Below the pieces are notes generated by a model that was given only the letters and a program-made list of their open reading frames with translations, made no database searches and was not told the DNA's origin. Shown here one piece after another: positions 4,268 to 53,825 of a stretch of 55,232 bases of DNA. Source of the stretch: a virus (taxonomy: Duplodnaviria; Caudoviricetes); IMG/VR virus record IMGVR_UViG_3300020045_002265, positions 1-55,232 of that record; one strand, 5' to 3'. How positions within the stretch are numbered: the first letter of the stretch is position 1; every line of letters starts with the position of its first letter. Position numbers and translations under genes: made by a program.

Positions 4268-5138
4268 ATTACTAAGACCACAATTAGCAGCCAGTGATGT
4301 CCCAGATATTTACACTCAGGTGAGCTATCCAAAGATCATTCAGCCAAAGCTTGATGGTATTTGCTGCTTAGCTGTGAATGGTGTAGCCATGAGCCGTAAC
4401 ATGAAACCTATCCCTAATCGGTATGTTCAGAAAGTGTTTAAGGAATTAAACCTACATGGATTGCATGGTGAGCTCATGGTGAAGGGTGACTTCAATGATG
4501 TGCAATCAGCAATTATGCGTGAAGATGGTGAGCCTGAGTTTGAGTATGTTGTTTATGATCATTGGATGACTGGTGAGGTTGCTTATCACCTAAGACAAAG
4601 TTTATTGTCAACAGGGGTGGCGGTATTAAACAGTCAACATATTAAAATGGTGGATTACTGGTGGGTTTACTCTGCTAAAGATTGTGAAGATATTCTAAAC
4701 CAACTCATTGAATTTGGTTATGAAGGCGCAATGTTACGCGACCCTAACTCACTTTACAAACAAGGTCGTCATACATTGAAATCTCAAGCTCTGATGAAGC
4801 TTAAGAAATTCCTCGATGATGAAGCTGTCATTATTGGATTTGAAGAGAAGCTTACCAATACCAACGTTAAAGAGTTGGATGAACGTGGATACTCTAAACG
4901 TTCTAGTAAGAAAGAAGGGATGGTTCCAGCTGGCACATTGGGAGCATTGATTGTTCGATGGAAAGGTGTTGAATTTAATATTGGATCTGGATTTGATGAT
5001 GCTATGAGACAATACATCTGGGATAACCGTGAAAGATTACTCGGTAAGTTAGTGACATTCCGTTATCAAGAATTATCGAAGTATGGTGTTCCAAGATTTC
5101 CAACTTTCAAAGTTTTATGGGAGGGTGATAAGGTATGA
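4257..5138 (+). CDS. ATP-dependent DNA ligase
   Basis: KLDG adenylation motif, GEL, EGAMLR, MKLK, GSGFDD and PRFP. Confidence 0.95.
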   Translation: MTIELLRPQLAASDVPDIYTQVSYPKIIQPKLDGICCLAVNGVAMSRNMKPIPNRYVQKVFKELNLHGLHGELMVKGDFNDVQSAIMREDGEPEFEYVVYDHWMTGEVAYHLRQSLLSTGVAVLNSQHIKMVDYWWVYSAKDCEDILNQLIEFGYEGAMLRDPNSLYKQGRHTLKSQALMKLKKFLDDEAVIIGFEEKLTNTNVKELDERGYSKRSSKKEGMVPAGTLGALIVRWKGVEFNIGSGFDDAMRQYIWDNRERLLGKLVTFRYQELSKYGVPRFPTFKVLWEGDKV

Positions 5139-7201: not shown

Positions 7202-8174
7202 ATTAAAAAATGATGACAATTTATGTTTGCAACTTGTAGAGGCTGTTCATGTAGATAAACTTAGTATCCCAGCAGCAGCTAAGAAATTAGCAATTGCCCA
7301 AAGATCAGCTTATGAGTTCTTTGGCAAAGAGAAGAAGTGGATGATCGCTTGGTGGGATGAATATGAAAGTCTAACTAAGGATGTCAATAACCCTAAAGTT
7401 AAGATTCTTTTCTTCGACATTGAAACCAGCCCAATACTTGGGAATGTCTGGTCACTCTGGCAACAGAATGTTGGTCTTAATCAGATACAACAAGATTGGT
7501 ATGTCTTATCTTATGCTGCTAAGTGGCAACATGAAGATGAAGTGATCTATGAAGATAAAAGTGGATCATGGGATAGTGAAGATGACAGTGAATTGCTTAA
7601 AGGTATTTGGAAACTACTAGATGAAGCTGACATTGTAATTGGGCAGAACAGTAAACGATTTGATGAGAAGAAACTTAATGCTAGGTTCATTCTGAACGGT
7701 ATGAAACCTCCATCCAGTTATCGAAGTATTGATACTCTTGAGATAGCAAAGAGACATTTTGGATTCACTTCTAATAAATTGGAGTACATGAGCCATAAAC
7801 TTTGCAAAAAGTACAAGAAGCTCAATCATGGAAAGTTTGCAGGGTTTGAATTGTGGAAGCAATGCTTAGCCGGTAATCCTGAAGCTTGGGCTGAGATGGA
7901 AGACTATAACAAACATGATGTGTTGGCTCTTGAAGAGTTGTATGAAATATTGCGTCCTTGGTATAAGGCCCACCCCAACTTAAATGTTTATCATGGTGAG
8001 ACAAACAATTATTGTACATGTGGTGAAAGTGACTGGGTGCATAGTGGATACCATTACACCAACTTATCTAAGTTTGATAGGTTTCAGTGTAAAGCTTGTG
8101 GTGCTGAAGTAAGGGGTCGAGTGAACCTACTATCCAAGTACAAAAGAGAAAATTTAAATAGTAATATTATTTGA
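7194..8174 (+). CDS. RNase H-like/DnaQ-type 3'-5' exonuclease with C-terminal Zn ribbon
   Basis: FFDIETSP, QNSKRFD and YNKHDV (DEDD-type residues); C-terminal CxC...CxxC. Confidence 0.85.
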   Translation: MNKLKNDDNLCLQLVEAVHVDKLSIPAAAKKLAIAQRSAYEFFGKEKKWMIAWWDEYESLTKDVNNPKVKILFFDIETSPILGNVWSLWQQNVGLNQIQQDWYVLSYAAKWQHEDEVIYEDKSGSWDSEDDSELLKGIWKLLDEADIVIGQNSKRFDEKKLNARFILNGMKPPSSYRSIDTLEIAKRHFGFTSNKLEYMSHKLCKKYKKLNHGKFAGFELWKQCLAGNPEAWAEMEDYNKHDVLALEELYEILRPWYKAHPNLNVYHGETNNYCTCGESDWVHSGYHYTNLSKFDRFQCKACGAEVRGRVNLLSKYKRENLNSNII

Positions 8175-8183
8175 GGAAATAGA

Positions 8184-8903
8184 ATGGCAGATTTTAAGAA
8201 AGGCGATAAGTTAAAGATTAAAGATCTTGGTGATACTGATAGCTACTGGTATGAGTCTGGCGAGATTTATACTTTTGACCACTACCTGAGTGCTCGAAAA
8301 GGGGGTAGGGGTATAGTCACCGAAGAGTTGATCGCTGAAGGTTACATCAGTGACGATGTGTGGATTGGAGAAGATGATGTAGAACCATGCCAGAATGAGC
8401 TACAAGACGTTTTAGCTTCAGGGGATACCGAAGTACCAGATATCATAGGAAATGGCCCCAATGAACTTACAGAAGCCTTAAATGCAGTTGATGAGATGTT
8501 CAAAGAGTTAATGTTTGAAGTAGTGAAGAATAATGCAGCTGATGGGATAAATGCCATTGTTGACTATTGCCACAATGAGTCGGCAGTTAAAGGTTGGTGG
8601 ACAGCTAAAGATGGATCACACCTAAAAGACAATCCACTAACATTCTCCAATAAGCTTATGCTGATTGTATCAGAAATAGCTGAGGCTATGGAAGGTGACC
8701 GCAAGGATAGTATGGATGATCACTTACCACATCGTAAAATGGCTGAAGTGGAATTGGCAGATGCAGTAATTCGTATCTTCGATTTGGCTGGAGCTTATGA
8801 TTATGATTTAGGTGGGGCTGTAGTTGAGAAGATGAATTACAATAAAGTAAGGGCAGACCACACTAAAGAAGCTAGGAGTGAAGCTAATGGCAAACGTTAT
8901 TAA
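8184..8903 (+). CDS. MazG-like nucleotide pyrophosphohydrolase (C-terminal domain)
   Basis: LIVSEIAEAMEG.RK...EVELADAVIRIFD...KMNYN motif. Confidence 0.8.
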   Translation: MADFKKGDKLKIKDLGDTDSYWYESGEIYTFDHYLSARKGGRGIVTEELIAEGYISDDVWIGEDDVEPCQNELQDVLASGDTEVPDIIGNGPNELTEALNAVDEMFKELMFEVVKNNAADGINAIVDYCHNESAVKGWWTAKDGSHLKDNPLTFSNKLMLIVSEIAEAMEGDRKDSMDDHLPHRKMAEVELADAVIRIFDLAGAYDYDLGGAVVEKMNYNKVRADHTKEARSEANGKRY

Positions 8904-46389: not shown

Positions 46390-46476
46390 ACCACCATAAA
46401 CAATAATATTTGCATCGCTGGATAAAAACCAACTCTGCTTTTTGCTCGCAGGAGCAAAACTAAAATCTGTACTCAT
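46390..46476 (-). CDS. terL: terminase large subunit, exon 1
   Basis: MSTDFSFAPASKKQSWFLSSDANIIVYGG (29 codons) with the Q-motif; ATG overlaps the upstream HNH stop (TAATG). Confidence 0.88.
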
Positions 46477-47114
46477 TATGAATTACCCACCCACCTGTGA
46501 ACTGTGGAAAAGCTTCTATCAACTATTTCACCAATTCTTGTTAGGGTGTATCCTTGCTCCCTTAGCCATCTGGCTTTAGAAACTGTGTGTTTAGATGCTT
46601 TTCTAGGGTCTCCATATTTACCACGAACTATTCTTGTAGCTGTTGGCTCACTGATACCGAAGTGTTTGGCTAATTTCTTCACTGAAATATTATTCTTCAA
46701 ATGATATTCTTTAACTCTTTGTTTATAATCACCGTCATACAGGGTGTTCCCTCTGACAACCATTAAATTATTTTTAAAAGCGTGTACTGTTTGTTCTTGG
46801 TGTGTTGCCCATTTTAAGTTGGATTCTAAGTTATTAAACTTATCACCATCTTCATGATTTACTGTTGGCTTATTTTCTGGATTAGGGATAAAAGCTTCTG
46901 CCACTAATTTGTGTACGGTGGGCCAACTTTCTTTACTAGTTAGCTTGTTTCTCAAGTGAACAGCTTTATAGCCACCATCATTAATCTTAGCTTTTAAAGT
47001 AATACCTTTACGGAAGCGATTTCCATCAAACCGGTCTACACTTCTAACAACACCAAAGTTGCTTACTTGGTAAACACCCTCATATCCGACTACATCTTTC
47101 CAAATTTCTTGCAT
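46476..47114 (-). CDS. NUMOD4-HNH homing endonuclease
   Basis: EIWKDVVGYEG.YQVSNFG; VHKLVAEAFIPNP.NKPTVNH.DG.K.NN; C-terminal HTHs. Confidence 0.9.
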   Translation of the reverse strand: MQEIWKDVVGYEGVYQVSNFGVVRSVDRFDGNRFRKGITLKAKINDGGYKAVHLRNKLTSKESWPTVHKLVAEAFIPNPENKPTVNHEDGDKFNNLESNLKWATHQEQTVHAFKNNLMVVRGNTLYDGDYKQRVKEYHLKNNISVKKLAKHFGISEPTATRIVRGKYGDPRKASKHTVSKARWLREQGYTLTRIGEIVDRSFSTVHRWVGNS

Positions 47115-48804: not shown

Positions 48805-48878
48805 TGGCAGGCCATGTAGGTATCGAACCCACGTCTTCAGGGTTGGAGCCTGACATTCTACCATTGAACTAACGACCT
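48805..48878 (-). tRNA. tRNA-Trp(CCA)
   Basis: Cloverleaf; TCAGG-CTCCAAC-CCTGA; CCA end. Confidence 0.9.
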
Positions 48879-48884
48879 ATAATT

Positions 48885-48999
48885 TGGTGCAGAGGGTAGG
48901 AATCGAACCTACGTTATTTCACTTATGGTTTGAATTGAATTTTAAGTTGTTTGCTGCAATAATCCTTAACAGGATATAGTCCAACATTTCAACCTCTGC
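48885..48999 (-). ncRNA. tRNA-like RNA (acceptor stem, T-arm, CCA) carrying a permuted CAGCAA-motif stem (unit H)
   Basis: GCAGAGG/CCTCTGC-ACCA and GTAGG-TTCGATT-CCTAC. No D-arm or canonical anticodon arm. Internal ATCCT-GTTA-AGGATTATTG-CAGCAAAC. Confidence 0.75.
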
Positions 49000-49004
49000 A
49001 TATT

Positions 49005-49080
49005 TGGTGGAATCAGTGAGAATCGAACTCACCACAGAAAAGGTGCAAACCTCTCTCGCCCCCTTGGCACATGTGACCCC
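49005..49080 (-). tRNA. tRNA-Ala(TGC)
   Basis: G3.U70 pair; loop TTTGCAC; CCA end. Confidence 0.85.
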
Positions 49081-49084
49081 ATAT

Positions 49085-49159
49085 TGGTGCATTCTCTTGG
49101 TAACGATCCAAGCTTTTACCCTCTTCAGGGGTACGCTAATCCATCTCAGCTAAGAATGC
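49085..49159 (-). tRNA. tRNA-Phe(GAA)
   Basis: TACCC-CTGAAGA-GGGTA; GCATTCT/AGAATGC-ACCA. Confidence 0.88.
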
Positions 49160-49160
49160 T

Positions 49161-49248
49161 TGGAGGAAGATAAAGGAATCGAACCCTCAACGCTCATCAC
49201 ATTGGCGACTGATTTCAAGTCAGTTTGTCCCCATGGACGCTACCTTCC
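49161..49248 (-). tRNA. tRNA-Ser(TGA)
   Basis: ACTGA-CTTGAAA-TCAGT; long variable arm; CCA end. Confidence 0.88.
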
Positions 49249-49364
49249 AATAAATTTGGTCGGGCTTTATTTTTGTATCTCATTTGGCCTTCTCCCGTTA
49301 GAACTTATATTGCTATTATTCTTTTGCCACTTCATTCAGGTGCTACCTGACAACTTCTTAAATT

Positions 49365-49440
49365 TGGTACTAGACCAGAGATTCGAACCATCACTTTCAA
49401 GATTTTAAGTCTTGTGCCTCTGCCGTTGGGCTAATGGAGC
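49365..49440 (-). tRNA. tRNA-Leu(TAA), degenerate, possibly a pseudo-tRNA
   Basis: Good D-arm and CAAGA-CTTAAAA-TCTTG, but two mismatches each in the acceptor and T stems and a short variable region. Confidence 0.55.
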
Positions 49441-49448
49441 ATTTAATT

Positions 49449-49525
49449 TGGTCTCTATGGCTGGACTCGAACCAACAACCCCTCGCTTCCAAAGCGAGCC
49501 GTCTACCAATTGACATTACACAGAG
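49449..49525 (-). tRNA. tRNA-Pro(TGG)
   Basis: CTCGC-TTTGGAA-GCGAG; CTCTGTG/CATAGAG-ACCA. Confidence 0.88.
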
Positions 49526-49583
49526 ATAATAAGTTTTGAATATTTAACGTCTGGATAACTATGAACCACGACAAAAATACTAT

Positions 49584-49658
49584 TGGCGACACTTATGGGT
49601 TACGATCCCATGACCTTTCCCGTGACAGGGGAGTGCTCTACCTCTGAGCTAAAGTGCC
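49584..49658 (-). tRNA. tRNA-Asp(GTC)
   Basis: Loop CTGTCAC; GGCACTT/AAGTGTC-GCCA. Confidence 0.88.
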
Positions 49659-49663
49659 ATATT

Positions 49664-49739
49664 TGGAAGCGAATACAGGAGTCGAACCTGTAACTAAAGG
49701 TTATGAGCCTTTCGGGATACCATTTCCACACAATTCGCA
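49664..49739 (-). tRNA. tRNA-Met(CAT), initiator-like
   Basis: AAAGG-CTCATAA-CCTTT; 1:72 mismatch; CCA end. Confidence 0.82.
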
Positions 49740-49751
49740 CTTAATACTTTA

Positions 49752-49822
49752 AACAGAATGGGTTTTAGCTACTAAGCATTAATGGAGTTTAGTAAGTAAG
49801 GTTTTTGCTGTATCCATTCTTC
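49752..49822 (-). ncRNA. CAGCAA-motif (Y-like) RNA, unit G, inside the tRNA cluster
   Basis: AGAATGG/CCATTCT terminal stem, CAGCAAAA 10 nt from the stem start, 3' GTT; inner TACTAA/TTAGTA hairpin. Confidence 0.75.
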
Positions 49823-49826
49823 AATT

Positions 49827-49901
49827 TGGCAGGAGATGGTGGCTTCGATCCACCCACTAGAGATTCAAAGTCTCGTGTTTTACCAAATAAACTAATCTCC
49901 A
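49827..49901 (-). tRNA. tRNA-Gln(TTG)
   Basis: Loop CTTTGAA; CCA end. Confidence 0.85.
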
Positions 49902-49916
49902 ACTATAAATACTTAT

Positions 49917-49990
49917 TGGGGTGACCTATGGAGTTCGCATCCACATATTCCTCCTTCACAGGGAGGGTCTTTACATTAAGATAAGGCCAC
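49917..49990 (-). tRNA. tRNA-His(GTG), atypical
   Basis: CCTCC-CTGTGAA-GGAGG; C73; T-loop TGCGAAC; the encoded -1 base is C, not G. Confidence 0.78.
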
Positions 49991-50003
49991 GCCAATAAAT
50001 ACT

Positions 50004-50079
50004 TGGCACTCTCACCGAGAGTCGAACTCGGATTACCGGCTTGAAAGGCCAGCGTTTTAACCAATTAAACTATAACAGT
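50004..50079 (-). tRNA. tRNA-Glu(TTC)
   Basis: CTGGC-CTTTCAA-GCCGG; one G:G mismatch in the acceptor stem; CCA end. Confidence 0.82.
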
Positions 50080-50483
50080 ATTAATCCTGCATGAAACTTT
50101 CTGTGGCAATTAGAACACAGAACCATACACTTTCTAATCTCAGCTTTGAAAGCTTTTGTAGAGTACCTAGACATTCTTGCTGGGTGGTCTTCCTTTATAG
50201 AAGGGTCTTTGTGATGGAGGTCAAGCGCAACTGGCTCTTTCTCTCCACAAACATAACAACCACACATACGTTTATATCTATTAACCAACTCCTTGTTGTA
50301 GCTTTTAACTTGCTTATTCCTGTCTCTAATAGCTTTCCTTTTCTTCGGGTTTGTTAGGTAGTTAGAATTGTTGTTTCTTTTACTACAATCCCTGCACTGC
50401 GTTTGTAAACCATCTTTTCTGGATGAGTTGACGTTGAACTCACTTAGTTCTTTATCAGTTGAACACTTATAGCAATGTTTCAC
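50070..50483 (-). CDS. HNH endonuclease inserted in the tRNA cluster
   Basis: GTG start after an AAGGA RBS; CxxC...CxxC zinc finger, CYVCG...LDLHH.DP...C..LCSNCHRKFH. Confidence 0.8.
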   Translation of the reverse strand: MKHCYKCSTDKELSEFNVNSSRKDGLQTQCRDCSKRNNNSNYLTNPKKRKAIRDRNKQVKSYNKELVNRYKRMCGCYVCGEKEPVALDLHHKDPSIKEDHPARMSRYSTKAFKAEIRKCMVLCSNCHRKFHAGLILL

Positions 50484-50497
50484 AAATTTCCTTAATA

Positions 50498-50573
50498 TGG
50501 AGCTACGACTGAGATTTGAACTCAGAACCTCTTGATTACAAATCAAGTACACCGCCAATTGTGTTATCGTAGC
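50498..50573 (-). tRNA. tRNA-Thr(TGT)
   Basis: CTTGA-TTTGTAA-TCAAG; GCTACGA/TCGTAGC-TCCA. Confidence 0.9.
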
Positions 50574-50574
50574 T

Positions 50575-50649
50575 TGGCTCCACATCTAGGCATCGAACCT
50601 AGCTCACACGGATTAACAGTCCGGCTGCACACCTTGTGCATTACATGGA
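50575..50649 (-). tRNA. tRNA-Asn(GTT)
   Basis: CGGA-CTGTTAA-TCCG; T-arm CTAGG-TTCGATG-CCTAG; CCA end. Confidence 0.85.
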
Positions 50650-50674
50650 ATTAAAACTACACTGTATACCTAAT

Positions 50675-50702
50675 AGTATACACTATATTTCTCATTTGTC
50701 AA
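50675..50702 (-). promoter_or_regulatory. sigma70-type promoter for the tRNA cluster
   Basis: TTGACA-16 nt-TATACT on the - strand. Confidence 0.7.
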
Positions 50703-50725
50703 TAGCTAAAGTGAAATATTTTTCA

Positions 50726-50938
50726 TTATTCACAATTTTTATTGCTAAATCTCTTGTTTTCTCTTGTTAAATCTTCATGTGCATAGAATTTATGATCCAA
50801 ATGATCTGGGTTCAGCACATAGACTCTGACACAAGTACTGCAAAATTCCTCTGGAACGACTGTACCATCGGGTAACTTTATAGTCTGCTCTAGTTCATAA
50901 TCTTCTAACTTATTATCACAAGACTTACATCTACTCAT
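50726..50938 (-). CDS. small Zn-finger-like protein
   Basis: CKSC...CSTC; 70 aa. Confidence 0.65.
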   Translation of the reverse strand: MSRCKSCDNKLEDYELEQTIKLPDGTVVPEEFCSTCVRVYVLNPDHLDHKFYAHEDLTRENKRFSNKNCE

Positions 50939-50954
50939 ATTGTTCTTCTTAAAT

Positions 50955-51031
50955 TGGTGCGGGTATAGGGACTCGAACCCTAACCATCTGGGTGGAAGCC
51001 AGAGATGCTAACCGTTAAACACCATACACGC
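50955..51031 (-). tRNA. tRNA-Gly(TCC)
   Basis: TCTGG-CTTCCAC-CCAGA; CCA end. Confidence 0.88.
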
Positions 51032-51040
51032 ATTATTAAA

Positions 51041-51102
51041 TTGTTGTGGCCGGGTGCGAAACCGGCATAAGGACTTGCGTATCGCCTACGCATTCACAAC
51101 AA
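51041..51102 (-). ncRNA. small three-way-junction RNA with complementary loops
   Basis: TTGTTGTG/CACAACAA closing stem; TGCGTA-GGCGA-TACGCA; GCCGG-TTTCGCAC-CCGGC. Confidence 0.6.
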
Positions 51103-51106
51103 TATT

Positions 51107-51180
51107 TGGAGTCTGAGATAGGATTCTAACCTACATAACATGGATTTGCAATCCAGCGCATAACACTCTGCCACCCAGAC
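51107..51180 (-). tRNA. tRNA-Cys(GCA)
   Basis: Loop TTGCAAA; GTCTGGG/CTCAGAC-TCCA (U73). Confidence 0.85.
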
Positions 51181-51664: not shown

Positions 51665-53086
51665 TTAATTTAAATTATAACGCTCCGACATAATAACCGC
51701 AAGCATTTGCTCATATGGGGTTGTGTTTGGGTCTTCATTTTTGAAGATTGACTTCATCAATGATGGACTAAATCCACTAACCAAAGTTGTACCAGCTTCA
51801 CCGGCAGTCACAGGGCTTGTTGTATTTGAAGCATTCAAGTTCCAAAATACAATCTGAGGTCTGCTATATCCAGCGGCTTTGTAAAGCTCATCAATTTTAT
51901 TGAAGAGGGTTACGTTGTTGTTGCCTGAGAATGCACGATTAAATTGCATATCCGAAAATACAACAATTACTTCCGGCATCTCTTCAACTGCAACTTTGTT
52001 CTGCACAGCTGCATTAAGCACAACAGTAAATACTTTCTCTAAGTTGGTGCTACCACCCCAAGGCGCTTTGTAAGTCTGGCGTACACGTTCAGTCAATGTA
52101 CCGCTAACCTTCATAATCTGGGGATTATCATGGAAAGTAATAAACATGTCCTTGAATGCACCCTCTAACTTACCCGACAAGTATAAACCTAAACTTGCAG
52201 CAATGTCAATACACAACACTTTAGAATTACCACCAGCTGGACATTCCATTGAACTGGATACATCAATCAATGGCAGGATTCTTTTAGAATTACCTTCCAA
52301 GTAATTTGGCAAAGCATTCCATTGGGCATCCGCTACAGCACTTACACCATACTTTACTGACTTAACAATATCATAAGGGTATACAGCACCGGCATTGACC
52401 TTAGCCTCGCCTTTAGTTAAGGATTGAATGTATTCACCATATCTCTCTGGTGCATTACGCCCAAATGCCTTCTGATAACGAGCTGAGGCCACTGATGGCA
52501 ACTTACCAAACTCAATACCATTCCACTCTTTAGCACACATTTGCTGTTCAACTGTAGAGCGATTAGCTACTACATGTTTACGCCATTCTTTCTCATTATG
52601 GAAGCCCATAAGCTTACGCAAAGCTTTGGCGGTGTTACCTTTAATGGGAGTCCATTTGTAGGCTAAGCCATTACCAGCTTTAAGCGCATCAGTAAAACAC
52701 TTTAATGCTGTACTTACCACATTAATATTGCCAACATTCTCTGCAATCCACAAAAGGTCATCATAACGACCAAGTTCAGGGATTTTGGTAACTATAGTGA
52801 CCATCTTCTGATTGGCTTGATAACTCTCCGCAGCGAGTTTAAATAGGTCACGGAACAACTGACGTTCACCAGCACCCTCACGGACATCTCGAAGCCATTG
52901 CAAGATACGCAATGCTTCGTCTTGGTTCTCTGCCAAGGCAGCTATAAATTTTGAGTCAATGTTCTTTCCACGGCTTGCTCCAGCCAGATAAAATAAATCT
53001 ACGTTTGCATTTGTAGAAGTGTGGAAAGCTTTAGCACCATTCTGGGTGGTTGCTGTTGCATTCAATGCATTAAATAATGTTGTCAT
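51665..53086 (-). CDS. DUF2828-type, Ro60/TROVE-like protein with C-terminal vWA domain
   Basis: Helical N-terminal region (T.NGA, RDVREGAGER, GRYDDL, KW.P, PSVA..RY..AF); MIDAS motif DVSSSM, GSTNL, SDMQF, IVFWNL, VSGFSP; AGGAG RBS. The Ro60 relationship is inferred. Confidence 0.75.
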   Translation of the reverse strand: MTTLFNALNATATTQNGAKAFHTSTNANVDLFYLAGASRGKNIDSKFIAALAENQDEALRILQWLRDVREGAGERQLFRDLFKLAAESYQANQKMVTIVTKIPELGRYDDLLWIAENVGNINVVSTALKCFTDALKAGNGLAYKWTPIKGNTAKALRKLMGFHNEKEWRKHVVANRSTVEQQMCAKEWNGIEFGKLPSVASARYQKAFGRNAPERYGEYIQSLTKGEAKVNAGAVYPYDIVKSVKYGVSAVADAQWNALPNYLEGNSKRILPLIDVSSSMECPAGGNSKVLCIDIAASLGLYLSGKLEGAFKDMFITFHDNPQIMKVSGTLTERVRQTYKAPWGGSTNLEKVFTVVLNAAVQNKVAVEEMPEVIVVFSDMQFNRAFSGNNNVTLFNKIDELYKAAGYSRPQIVFWNLNASNTTSPVTAGEAGTTLVSGFSPSLMKSIFKNEDPNTTPYEQMLAVIMSERYNLN

Positions 53087-53106
53087 TCTATTCTCCTTTG
53101 TTTATT

Positions 53107-53182
53107 AACAGAATCAATTGTGATGAGATCACAGTACGCCGGTAAGCCCGAAGGCTTGGATTGTTTGCTGAAGTGATTCTTC
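53107..53182 (-). ncRNA. CAGCAA-motif (Y-like) RNA, unit A
   Basis: AGAATCA/TGATTCT stem, CAGCAAAC, 3' GTT; cargo AAGCC-TTCG-GGCTT and TGTGAT-CTC-ATCACA hairpins. Confidence 0.8.
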
Positions 53183-53188
53183 AAACAT

Positions 53189-53376
53189 AACAGATACAGG
53201 ATTCCGATTCATTTAACCATCATACTCGGTATATTTCTGGCGATCAAGTTTCTTCTTGCAATACCCAGTCTTCTACTGATAATATCCCAAGTCGTCTTAT
53301 TGGCTCGTTAACTGCTTTCCATTAAGCTTTAGATTGGGAATCCATTTAGTGTATTTTGTTGCTGAACTGTATCTTG
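53189..53376 (-). ncRNA. CAGCAA-motif (Y-like) RNA, unit B (188 nt)
   Basis: AGATACAG/CTGTATCT stem, CAGCAACA, 3' GTT; long multi-hairpin cargo. Confidence 0.75.
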
Positions 53377-53382
53377 AAACAT

Positions 53383-53504
53383 AACAGATTAGTTGTTTTC
53401 TTTTGCTCTACCAACTGAGCTAATATACGCCACCAAAGTGTTCACGTATATACAGGACTCGAACCTGTGACACAAAGTTTGTATTGTCGCTGTAACTAAT
53501 CTTC
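53383..53504 (-). ncRNA. YrlA-like RNA with a circularly permuted tRNA domain, unit C
   Basis: AGATTAGTT/AACTAATCT stem, CAGCGACA; T-arm ACAGG-TTCGAGT-CCTGT, closed acceptor ATATACG/CGTATAT, then D-arm TAGCTCAGTTGGTAGAGC. Confidence 0.88.
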
Positions 53505-53510
53505 AATTTA

Positions 53511-53577
53511 AACAGGCTGCAATCAACGGTTTTAGATTAAAAGTCTAATGTTTGATTTGTTTGCTGTAAGCAGCCTT
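53511..53577 (-). ncRNA. CAGCAA-motif RNA carrying a tRNA-Lys(UUU) anticodon stem-loop, unit D
   Basis: AGGCTGC/GCAGCCT stem, CAGCAAAC; inner ATCAA/TTGAT and TTAGA-CTTTTAA-TCTAA. Confidence 0.82.
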
Positions 53578-53586
53578 TAATTCTTT

Positions 53587-53711
53587 AACGGAATGTATTT
53601 ACTGTACGTGTGCTACCATTACACCATCAACAGGCTTACGCCCAGATTGCAGGACTCGAACCCACTCCACGATCTTCAAATGATAAGTAATTTATTGCTG
53701 TAAACATTCCT
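53587..53711 (-). ncRNA. YrlA-like RNA with a circularly permuted tRNA domain, unit E
   Basis: GGAATGT/ACATTCC stem, CAGCAATA; T-arm GTGGG-TTCGAGT-CCTGC, GGGC-GTAA-GCCT capped acceptor-like stem, D-arm TGGTGTAATGGTAGCAC. Confidence 0.82.
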
Positions 53712-53719
53712 AAAACTAT

Positions 53720-53781
53720 AACAGAGAGCTGTTTGCTTCTTACGGCCTATGCAAGAGTTTTGTTTGCTGTAAGCTCTCTTC
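53720..53781 (-). ncRNA. CAGCAA-motif (Y-like) RNA, unit F
   Basis: AGAGAGCT/AGCTCTCT stem, CAGCAAAC, 3' GTT; inner TCTTGC-ATAGGCC-GTAAGA hairpin. Confidence 0.8.
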
Positions 53782-53797
53782 AAATTTCAATGTAACC

Positions 53798-53825
53798 ATA
53801 TTACCACATTTTTCAAATTTTGCAA
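53798..53825 (-). promoter_or_regulatory. sigma70-type promoter driving the RNA array and vWA gene
   Basis: TTGCAA-16 nt-TAATAT with extended -10 TG, 16 nt upstream of unit F. Confidence 0.6.

Follow-up and report, generated by a model that had tools for sequence, protein, structure and literature searches.

A candidate Ro/Y-RNA-type particle of phages: a DUF2828/DUF7788 protein and RNA units with a shared handle and exchangeable cargo

The viral record IMGVR_UViG_3300020045_002265 was analysed over its whole 55,232-nt stretch, referred to below as the window, and one of its loci raises the question of whether a phage protein resembling Ro60 is equipped with RNA partners of its own. The locus comprises a gene for a protein of 473 amino acids (aa) and, ahead of it, six tandem RNA-like units whose ends follow a common plan, termed the handle here, around interiors that vary from unit to unit and are referred to as cargo. 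It is likely, in our assessment, that the two components belong to a Ro/Y-RNA-type particle, in which a DUF2828/DUF7788 protein of the Ro60 type is joined by handle-tagged RNA partners with exchangeable cargo. Such a particle would probably serve counter-defence or RNA surveillance.

The Ro60-type protein and the RNA units of the window

The gene of the 473-aa protein lies at 51665-53086 on the minus strand. Its product is composed of a helical ring (about residues 1-260) and a vWA domain with a metal ion-dependent adhesion site (MIDAS) at about residues 265-455. Pfam assigned the protein to DUF7788 (E 9e-47, residues 273-452) and DUF2828 (E 1e-23), and in PHROGs it fell into family 850, 'RNA-binding protein'.

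A structural model was obtained with AlphaFold from an alignment of 45 relatives, with a predicted local distance difference test score (pLDDT) of 86.8 and a predicted template modelling (TM) score (pTM) of 0.87. All 13 Foldseek matches of this model at E<=0.001 were Ro60 chains, the best of them at E 1.8e-8, with TM-scores of 0.48-0.56. Alignment to Xenopus Ro (1yvr) by VIA-align gave a Z of 21.8 and a root-mean-square deviation of 3.9 Å over 410 residues, spanning model residues 6-453. Ranks 1-10 of the same comparison were all occupied by Ro60, including that of Thermus phage phiLo (Z 14.8) and D. radiodurans Rsr (Z 12.8), and the next row after the Ro60 chains reached Z 10.2 with the vWA part only. 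The MIDAS residues D275-x-S277-x-S279, T347 and D379 were invariant in the 45 relatives. As modelled, the protein has the Ro60 fold, consisting of helical ring and vWA domain, but belongs to a different sequence family.

A preliminary description of the locus, made from the sequence letters, had proposed a DUF2828-type protein with a vWA domain, a MIDAS and a Ro60-like fold, and these points are confirmed by the Pfam assignments, the invariant motif residues and the structural comparisons, respectively. Its further reading of the protein as a divergent Ro is supported by the fold; the resemblance itself had already been recorded, both in existing annotations of the family ('Ro-like RNA binding protein', 'RNA-binding protein') and in two publications (PMC11482910, PMC12282133).

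The array, the gene and the tRNA cluster described further below are all located on the minus strand of the window. Each unit was taken to begin at the first A of A(A/G)G and to end with the final U of GUU. Unit 1 (53780-53720, 61 nt) starts with AAG and has an 8-bp terminal stem, the motif UUACAGCAA, a small hairpin as cargo and a GUU tail. In unit 2 (53711-53587, 125 nt), which starts with AGG, a 7-bp stem and UUACAGCAA enclose a permuted tRNA-like cargo, and the tail reads CCGUU. Unit 3 (53577-53511, 67 nt) combines AAG, a 7-bp stem with a second helix stacked on it, CUUACAGCAA bulging out on one side between the two, and CUGUU. Unit 4 (53503-53383, 121 nt) has AAG, a 9-bp stem and UUACAGCGA, and its cargo is a YrlA-like tRNA mimic as judged from its sequence. 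Unit 5 (53375-53189, 187 nt), with AAG, an 8-bp stem, UUCAGCAA and CUGUU, carries a large cargo of no recognised kind. Unit 6 (53181-53107, 75 nt), with AAG, a 7-bp stem, UUCAGCAA, two small hairpins and CUGUU, is followed by the ribosome site. A further unit, unit 7 (49821-49752, 70 nt), lies between tRNA-Gln and tRNA-Met, 1.8 kb beyond the stop of the gene, and shows AAG, a 7-bp stem, AUACAGCAA and CUGUU.

The units share a single layout, namely A(A/G)G, the 5' stem strand, (U)U(A/U)CAGC(A/G)A, a variable interior, the 3' stem strand and GUU. The start of CAGC(A/G)A lies 11 nt past the first A, equal to 10 nt past the stem start, in six of six array units; the terminal stems are 7-9 bp long, differ in sequence from unit to unit and are each followed by GUU. 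Six of the seven window units have both the AAG start and the CUGU end, the exception being unit 2 with AGG and CCGU. Spacers of 7-9 nt, rich in AT, separate the array units, and 8 nt past unit 6 the sequence AAGGAG (53098-53093) is followed by the ATG of the 473-aa open reading frame (ORF) at 53086. The preliminary description had reported six tandem units, the fixed 10-nt offset of CAGC(A/G)A, differing stems of 7-9 bp ending in GTT, and a position ahead of the ribosome-binding site of the protein gene. All four statements hold for the array; the unit lengths given there were each 0-1 nt longer, which reflects boundary choice only.

A simple scanner was defined by the motif, the fixed offset, a stem of >=6 bp and GTT. 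Over the whole window it returned 10 matches, compared with a mean of 0.46 and a maximum of 4 in 200 letter shuffles. The ten comprised the six array units, unit 7 and three others; the latter, two of them on the plus strand and one spanning 258 nt, have no AAG start and are regarded as chance matches.

In minimum-energy folds, the terminal helix was formed and the motif was unpaired in all seven open units. In unit 3 the motif appeared as a one-sided bulge between two stacked helices. The interior of unit 5 folded no better than shuffles (z -0.98), and its terminal stem was nevertheless present in the minimum-energy fold. In the interior of unit 2, read by eye, a T-arm-like segment stands ahead of a D-arm-like segment, a permuted tRNA-like order; no model matched this interior.

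A promoter ahead of the array had also been described. The corresponding element is a single weak sigma-70-like match at 53816-53789 on the minus strand (TTGAAA, 16 nt, TACATT; 9/12), to be regarded as a lead only, in a region that is no richer in such sites than shuffled sequence (17 sites versus 16.2). Transcription would start from it at about 53782, right beside the 5' end of unit 1. A scan of the stretch from the array to the ribosome site of the gene revealed no terminator-like site.

Public sequencing runs cover at most 0.10 of the stretch, and their contigs are uninformative on RNA ends or levels. One contig from a soil RNA library (run X3) reproduces 53511-53587, that is, unit 3 and a spacer, with zero differences and with unlike flanks. 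The occurrence of an identical unit 3 among other neighbours fits a cassette-like exchange of units. On that contig, the unit following the copy of unit 3 starts with the motif variant CAGCAG.

Handle units and the gene in other genomes

Eight annotated loci were fetched around relatives of the gene and inspected for handle units. In the Felix-O1-like phage UAB_Phi87, four same-strand units were found among tRNAs. Mycobacterium phage Crossroads has three same-strand units from 40 nt past the gene, the middle one a tRNA mimic, with no tRNA gene annotated nearby. Three same-strand units lie 72-337 nt upstream of the gene in Listeria phage LP-124, and another three start 19 nt past the gene in Staphylococcus phage S-CoN_Ph10, where the sole tRNA is 1.4 kb further. 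Campylobacter phage PC14 and Bacillus phage Skywalker contributed two and six units, respectively, all on the strand of the gene. The remaining two loci, from phages KVP40 and Ci1, are considered in the last section.

For a covariance model with 7 base pairs, R1, 15 short units were taken from the window and five phages. One Staphylococcus unit (L006:7624-7690) and three Felix-type units of locus L003 were omitted from training as MAFFT had misplaced their 3' ends. The model recovered held-out units in L003 (three), L005, L006 and L008, all four omitted rows included. The window units among the training rows reached 48.2 (unit 1), 51.8 (unit 3), 41.1 (unit 6) and 49.2 bits (unit 7). Units with long interiors are missed by R1.

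The test loci, 80 from IMG/VR and 40 from GTDB contigs, were fetched through the protein alone. R1 gave 40 matches at E<=0.1 in 35 of the 80 IMG/VR loci and 38 matches in 23 of the 40 GTDB loci, most of the GTDB contigs being from metagenome bins. All 78 matches, in 58 of the 120 independent loci, were on the strand of the gene, and 34 of the 40 IMG/VR matches lay within 500 nt of it. When five match-free contigs were searched whole, three were found to have units 7-8 kb away on the same strand. The simple scanner, applied to the 80 IMG/VR loci, gave 76 matches on the plus strand (49 loci) versus 25 on the minus strand (18 loci); it is noisy for long spans, and the counts given here rest on R1. 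Gene and units were also observed on contigs L130, L131 and L141, which are binned with an uncultured archaeon, with Pacearchaeota (425-kb contig) and with Saccharibacteria; these contigs may represent viruses of those hosts or binning errors.

Phages T4, T5, Bxz1, K and SPO1 were used for comparison. None of the five carries a relative of the gene, and R1 found no match in them (best E 0.13, 21 bits). Bxz1 is listed with a canonical Ro60 and YrlA in Table S2 of Chen et al. (PMC4201824). The co-occurrence of motif and gene, which the preliminary description had proposed as a check, is therefore borne out by 78 R1 matches in 58 of 120 loci and none in five gene-free phages.

Covariation was evaluated on the 40 IMG/VR matches, 35 of them distinct. 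Stem cells were paired in 99.6% of cases, compared with 65.3% in shuffles and at most 58.3% with the partner slid. Six of the seven stem pairs changed on both sides, and the seventh, a G:C, was the same in 35 of 35 distinct sequences; nor did CAGCA, this G:C or the 3' G vary in any of the 40 matches. Unit ends in other phages vary around (A/U)G ... C(U/A)G. The handle consists of a terminal helix of about 7 bp, invariably G:C at its second pair, of unpaired (U)U(A/U)CAGCAA directly following on the 5' strand, and of a short 3' tail from (U/A)G. It is kept among phages whose proteins are only 29-50% identical.

The protein family is large, with 7030 relatives at E<=0.001 among 8000 candidates scored, and relatives were present in 710 of 50,697 phage records. 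Hosts of these phages include Escherichia, Salmonella, Mycobacterium, Vibrio, Listeria, Staphylococcus, Campylobacter, Enterococcus and Bacillus. Eukaryotic members were found in Naegleria gruberi, the mite Oppia nitens, poppy and other plants, and ascomycete fungi, with a patchy distribution (P0269, P0264, P0128, P0123); they are about 30-35% identical to the phage protein over 58-80% of its length. Among further searches of the family, the ESM Atlas gave only viral clusters, and longer proteins gave plant and fungal members.

Several existing annotations coincide with units or lie beside them. Tiny 'hypothetical protein' ORFs are annotated at 7465-7554 and 7617-7718 of the Staphylococcus locus (L006) and at 7782-7958 and 8349-8606 of the Felix-type locus (L003); they probably represent RNA genes that were mis-annotated. 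LP-124 encodes an RtcB-like ligase and an RNA ligase (L005 8806-10017 and 11577-12518), and Citrobacter phage Ci1 a CCA-adding enzyme (L001 11863-12948), in both cases a few kb from the Ro-like gene. Such RNA repair and tRNA maturation genes near the phage gene recall the bacterial rsr-yrlBA-rtcBA operon.

Likeness to known RNAs and published reports

No Rfam family reached its gathering score on the window units, so that the Rfam check proposed in the preliminary description turned out in its favour. Below that level, two likenesses were observed, one to YrlA and one to an RNA family of social amoebae.

Homologs of Ro60 with adjacent YrlA-like RNAs are established in bacteria and some phages (PMC4201824). 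Unit 4 matched the YrlA family (RF02553) at 32.9 bits (gathering 69) over positions 23-87 of the 114 in the model, stopping short of positions 1-22 and 88-114. The alignment pairs a T arm, a closed acceptor-like stem and a D arm. Ordinary tRNAs in public runs contain the same D- and T-arm words in the opposite, normal order, and unit 4 is therefore permuted. In other loci, gene-adjacent units of similar length (about 120 nt) scored 37.7-47.1 bits with the YrlA model, also below gathering. Units of this length are, judged by sequence, permuted tRNA mimics of the YrlA type.

The phage system resembles Ro60/Rsr in the ring plus vWA/MIDAS fold of its protein, and Ro60/Rsr with YrlA in having RNA genes that adjoin the protein gene on the same strand. 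As in YrlA, the ends of the units form a terminal helix, a conserved motif stands right after the 5' strand, and the tRNA-like cargo is ordered as T arm, closed acceptor-like stem and D arm. In contrast to Ro60/Rsr, the phage protein belongs to the DUF2828/DUF7788 sequence family. The motif differs as well: YrlA sequences (supplementary text 1 of PMC4201824) have CGAAUG or CGAAG after the 5' stem strand, whereas the phage handle has UUACAGCAA, UUACAGC(A/G)A, in place of CGAA(U)G, so that the earlier statement of a handle different from that of canonical YrlA is upheld. Furthermore, phage loci bear many RNAs with unrelated, mostly non-tRNA cargos, unlike YrlA.

A related phage system has been described in Thermus phage phiLo, whose Ro60 (PDB 9l5y) binds Yrl1 and Yrl2 and damps host PNPase in vitro (PMC12135203). 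There, too, a Ro-fold protein is phage-encoded with small RNA genes just upstream, and the structural Z with our model is the 14.8 given above. In contrast to the DUF2828 system, phiLo has a canonical Ro60, a CGAA-type handle and two RNAs, with binding shown in vitro. The rnaC and rnaD RNAs of T4 are also small, stable and of unassigned role, and are located among phage tRNA genes; they were rejected as relatives of the units, as T4 has no relative of the gene, R1 gave no match better than E 0.37 in T4, and no handle is present in their sequence.

The second likeness concerns the Class I RNAs of Dictyostelium. Their Rfam family, RF01414 (Dicty_Class_I_RNA), was the only one to align to the handle, and its eight matches all fell on units, eight of eight in register. 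The scores, 16.6-30.7 bits, were all below gathering (41.5); unit 1 reached 18.0 and unit 3 29.1 bits, and the best value of 30.7 was obtained for a unit of locus L036. Units 1 and 3 carry CUUACAGCAA where the RF01414 consensus reads CCUUACAGCAA.

According to Kjellin et al. (2021, PMC7919456), Class I RNAs are 42-65 nt long, start with AAG and have an invariant G paired with the C of a 3' CUGU. Their terminal stem of 6 bp is conserved in structure, not in sequence; an unpaired 11-nt motif comes after the 5' strand, and the rest is variable. The same text places them in no organism outside Dictyostelia, assigns them no function, and describes promoters of their own with the Dictyostelium upstream sequence element (DUSE) and binding to the RNA recognition motif (RRM) protein Rnp1A. 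Proteins recovered in a Class I pull-down, as given in the preprint by Kjellin et al., were GuaB, NdkC, Rnp1A/CIBP and the uncharacterised DDB_G0281243.

The phage units have the corresponding features: they open with AAG and close with CUGUU, contain an invariant G:C in a stem of about 7 bp, and continue from (C)UUACAGCAA into a variable remainder. As in Class I RNAs, the terminal stem covaries around the invariant G:C, and the unpaired motif stands directly after the 5' strand of the stem. Unlike Class I RNAs, the units are phage-encoded, and all RF01414 scores remain under gathering. This likeness is both specific and unexpected. The preliminary description knew of no described family with this motif; this part has to be revised, given that Class I RNAs are a look-alike in register, though below threshold.

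A tentative extension may be drawn from this resemblance. DUF2828/DUF7788 proteins and handle RNAs could form a second Ro/Y-type lineage reaching from phages into eukaryotes, with Class I RNAs, which are abundant, developmentally regulated and until now considered unique to social amoebae, as its eukaryotic members, bound by a DUF2828-type protein such as DDB_G0281243, and with undiscovered partner RNAs in plants, fungi and Naegleria; we consider this possible but doubtful. No Dictyostelium member of the protein family was found among the 10 of 150 representatives of the eukaryote profile (A6) whose names were looked up, which is no evidence of absence; these ten were chosen for AT-rich-type composition and include Naegleria, the mite, poppy and a fungus. 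No functional paper on DUF2828 or DDB_G0281243 was found in the literature. With a handle near-identical to that of Class I RNAs, a question open since 2004, that of their function and of the binder of their motif, becomes testable.

Two published systems bear on the protein family. In coliphage Bas63, gp130 is described as 'structurally similar to Ro60', is located directly upstream of tRNAs and is needed against the Ppl defence; the same PhageMaP preprint guesses that Y RNAs are among the Bas63 'tRNAs' (PMC11482910). For Listeria phage CKA15, PMC12282133 reports very strong transcription of non-coding regions that lie within 2 kb upstream of the Rsr-like gene CKA15_055; the protein itself was found in purified virions (20 peptides, 57% coverage; Table 1). 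Bas63 gp130 and CKA15_055 are probably members of the family studied here, because Felixounavirus and P100-like phages both carry the protein. The presence of CKA15_055 in virions could mean that the DNA is delivered together with the protein or the particle.

Although Y-RNA partners were guessed by the authors of both the CKA15 and the Bas63 work, in 'tRNAs' close by or in the plentiful non-coding transcripts, neither paper defines a partner RNA, a handle or its spread, and no paper naming an RNA partner of the family, a handle or its spread was found. The Ro-likeness of the protein was noted previously; the RNA family and the amoeba link appear to be new. In LP-124, a match to ROOL RNA was observed at 4420-4971 of the locus (L005), about 1 kb upstream of the DUF2828 gene, at 87.4 bits (gathering 99.1); it may be one of the abundant non-coding regions of the kind described for CKA15, a related phage.

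Weighing of the readings and neighbouring features

In the particle considered likely here, the array would be co-transcribed with the gene and cut within the AU-rich spacers of 7-9 nt. The ring would bind the handle, composed of helix and single-stranded motif, as Ro60 binds the terminal helix of Y RNA. The cargos, among them small hairpins, a 187-nt domain and a permuted tRNA mimic, may tether or decoy nucleases, tRNA enzymes or repair enzymes, and the particle would serve the phage in counter-defence or RNA surveillance. A role in protection or RNA control would accord with the phenotype reported for Bas63 and with the RNA-repair genes that some phages have nearby.

A number of observations weigh against this reading. 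Kinship with Ro60 rests on fold, because neither a TROVE match nor a PDB sequence match was obtained: hmmscan against Pfam-A at E<=0.01 gave only DUF7788 and DUF2828, and phmmer against PDB sequences gave no match at E<=10. Unit-length RNAs of this phage are predicted, and we infer the binding of RNA by the protein, the processing of the units and the biological role. Within the stored flanks, R1 found no match in 45 of the 80 IMG/VR loci and 17 of the 40 GTDB loci; nine match-free loci remained empty with filters off, and two of the five contigs searched whole were without a match, both of them fragments. KVP40 offers two long scanner candidates only, with a weak R1 value (E 0.7), and Citrobacter phage Ci1 has the handle in the closed form only, which is described below. 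Because the alignment used for covariation had been fitted to the model, pairing is favoured in it, although compensatory stem changes are plain in the raw rows as well. As for the published systems, the orthology of Bas63 gp130 is inferred from genus and gene order, and none of the three abundant CKA15 regions could be matched to units, the 492-nt one fitting a ROOL-like RNA better.

The handle could instead tag the units for a different factor, for example an RNase of the host, a tRNA-processing enzyme or another phage protein, with the units kept near the gene through a shared module of tRNA and RNA metabolism. Such an arrangement would agree with the frequent location of units inside or adjoining tRNA clusters and with the presence, in some phages, of neighbouring genes for RNA ligase, RtcB and CCA-adding enzyme. 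It is nevertheless unlikely in view of Crossroads, where three units follow the gene with no annotated tRNA nearby, of S-CoN_Ph10, where the units start 19 nt after the gene and the sole tRNA lies well beyond them, and of the 78 R1 matches, every one on the strand of the gene and most within 500 nt. Moreover, the tRNA-rich phages T4, T5, K, SPO1 and Bxz1, in which the gene is absent, have no units.

That the window array stops 8 nt before the ribosome site, with no terminator-like site found between, would suit a cis-acting leader or trailer of the gene's mRNA that controls translation or stability. We regard this as quite improbable, since unit placement varies between upstream, downstream and kilobases off among tRNAs (unit 7 itself is 1.8 kb beyond the stop), complete tRNA mimics occur among the cargos, and an identical unit 3 occurs with other neighbours in another record. 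Decayed or rearranged tRNA genes, or small functionless selfish repeats, might account for the swapped order of tRNA arms in units 2 and 4 and would be in keeping with the homing endonuclease genes within the tRNA region; but most cargos are not tRNA-like, the handle is kept across phages with proteins 29-50% identical, and the stem covariation, together with the constancy of CAGCA, of the G:C pair and of the 3' G throughout the 40 matches, already disfavours this explanation, to which we give almost no credence.

If the units and the protein do form a Ro/Y-RNA-type particle, a large protein family of unassigned function gains a candidate RNA partner, and an RNA family that is now missed by annotation, or mislabelled as tiny ORFs and pseudo-tRNAs, comes into view. 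The Ro/Y-RNA principle of one handle and exchangeable cargo would be extended to a second protein family and to cargo arrays, and would be tied to a gene with a counter-defence phenotype in a coliphage, as reported in PMC11482910.

The tRNA gene cluster of the window extends over 48805-51180 on the minus strand and contains at least 13 tRNAs and unit 7; ARAGORN called 12, and Rfam one more. The preliminary description had placed two more units among the tRNAs and counted eight RNA cargos. One of the two is the canonical unit 7, which brings the canonical units to seven; the other, the eighth cargo, is an atypical closed variant. It is a tRNA-like RNA of 115 nt (48999-48885, minus strand) with an acceptor stem, a T arm and a 3' CCA, and a fold z of -3.48. 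In this element AAG is at 48967 and CAGC at 48956, so that the usual 11-nt offset is kept, and the 3' stem strand and GUU directly precede AAG, which makes the handle a closed hairpin. It occupies the place of the anticodon arm, as a hairpin AUCCU-GUUA-AGGAU followed by UUGCAGCAA.

A comparable closed-handle arrangement was recognised by eye in Citrobacter phage Ci1, at about 7840-7965 of its locus (L001). A 'tRNA-Pseudo' is annotated at 7967-8080 of the same locus, just past the handle RNA.

Some sequences of the cluster were recognised unevenly by the programs. The tRNA at 49920-49990 (minus strand), with an Rfam score of 48.2 bits, was missed by ARAGORN, and a weak tRNA-like Rfam match of 24.9 bits (threshold 29) was obtained at 49368-49440 (minus strand). 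A second odd tRNA-like sequence at 49005-49085 (minus strand) has a T arm and a 3' CCA and is without the CAGCAA motif; it was not called by ARAGORN, and Rfam gave a weak tmRNA-like match only (17.5 bits).

The window as a whole is assigned to a myovirus-type phage because it contains genes for terminase, portal, major head, tail sheath, baseplate and ribonucleotide reductase; likeness to T4 is not part of this assignment. HNH endonuclease ORFs lie inside or beside the tRNA cluster, at 50070-50585 and 46476-47114, both on the minus strand (PHROG 2255 and PHROG 59). The former, as listed, overlaps tRNA-Thr, and its true start is therefore probably further downstream.

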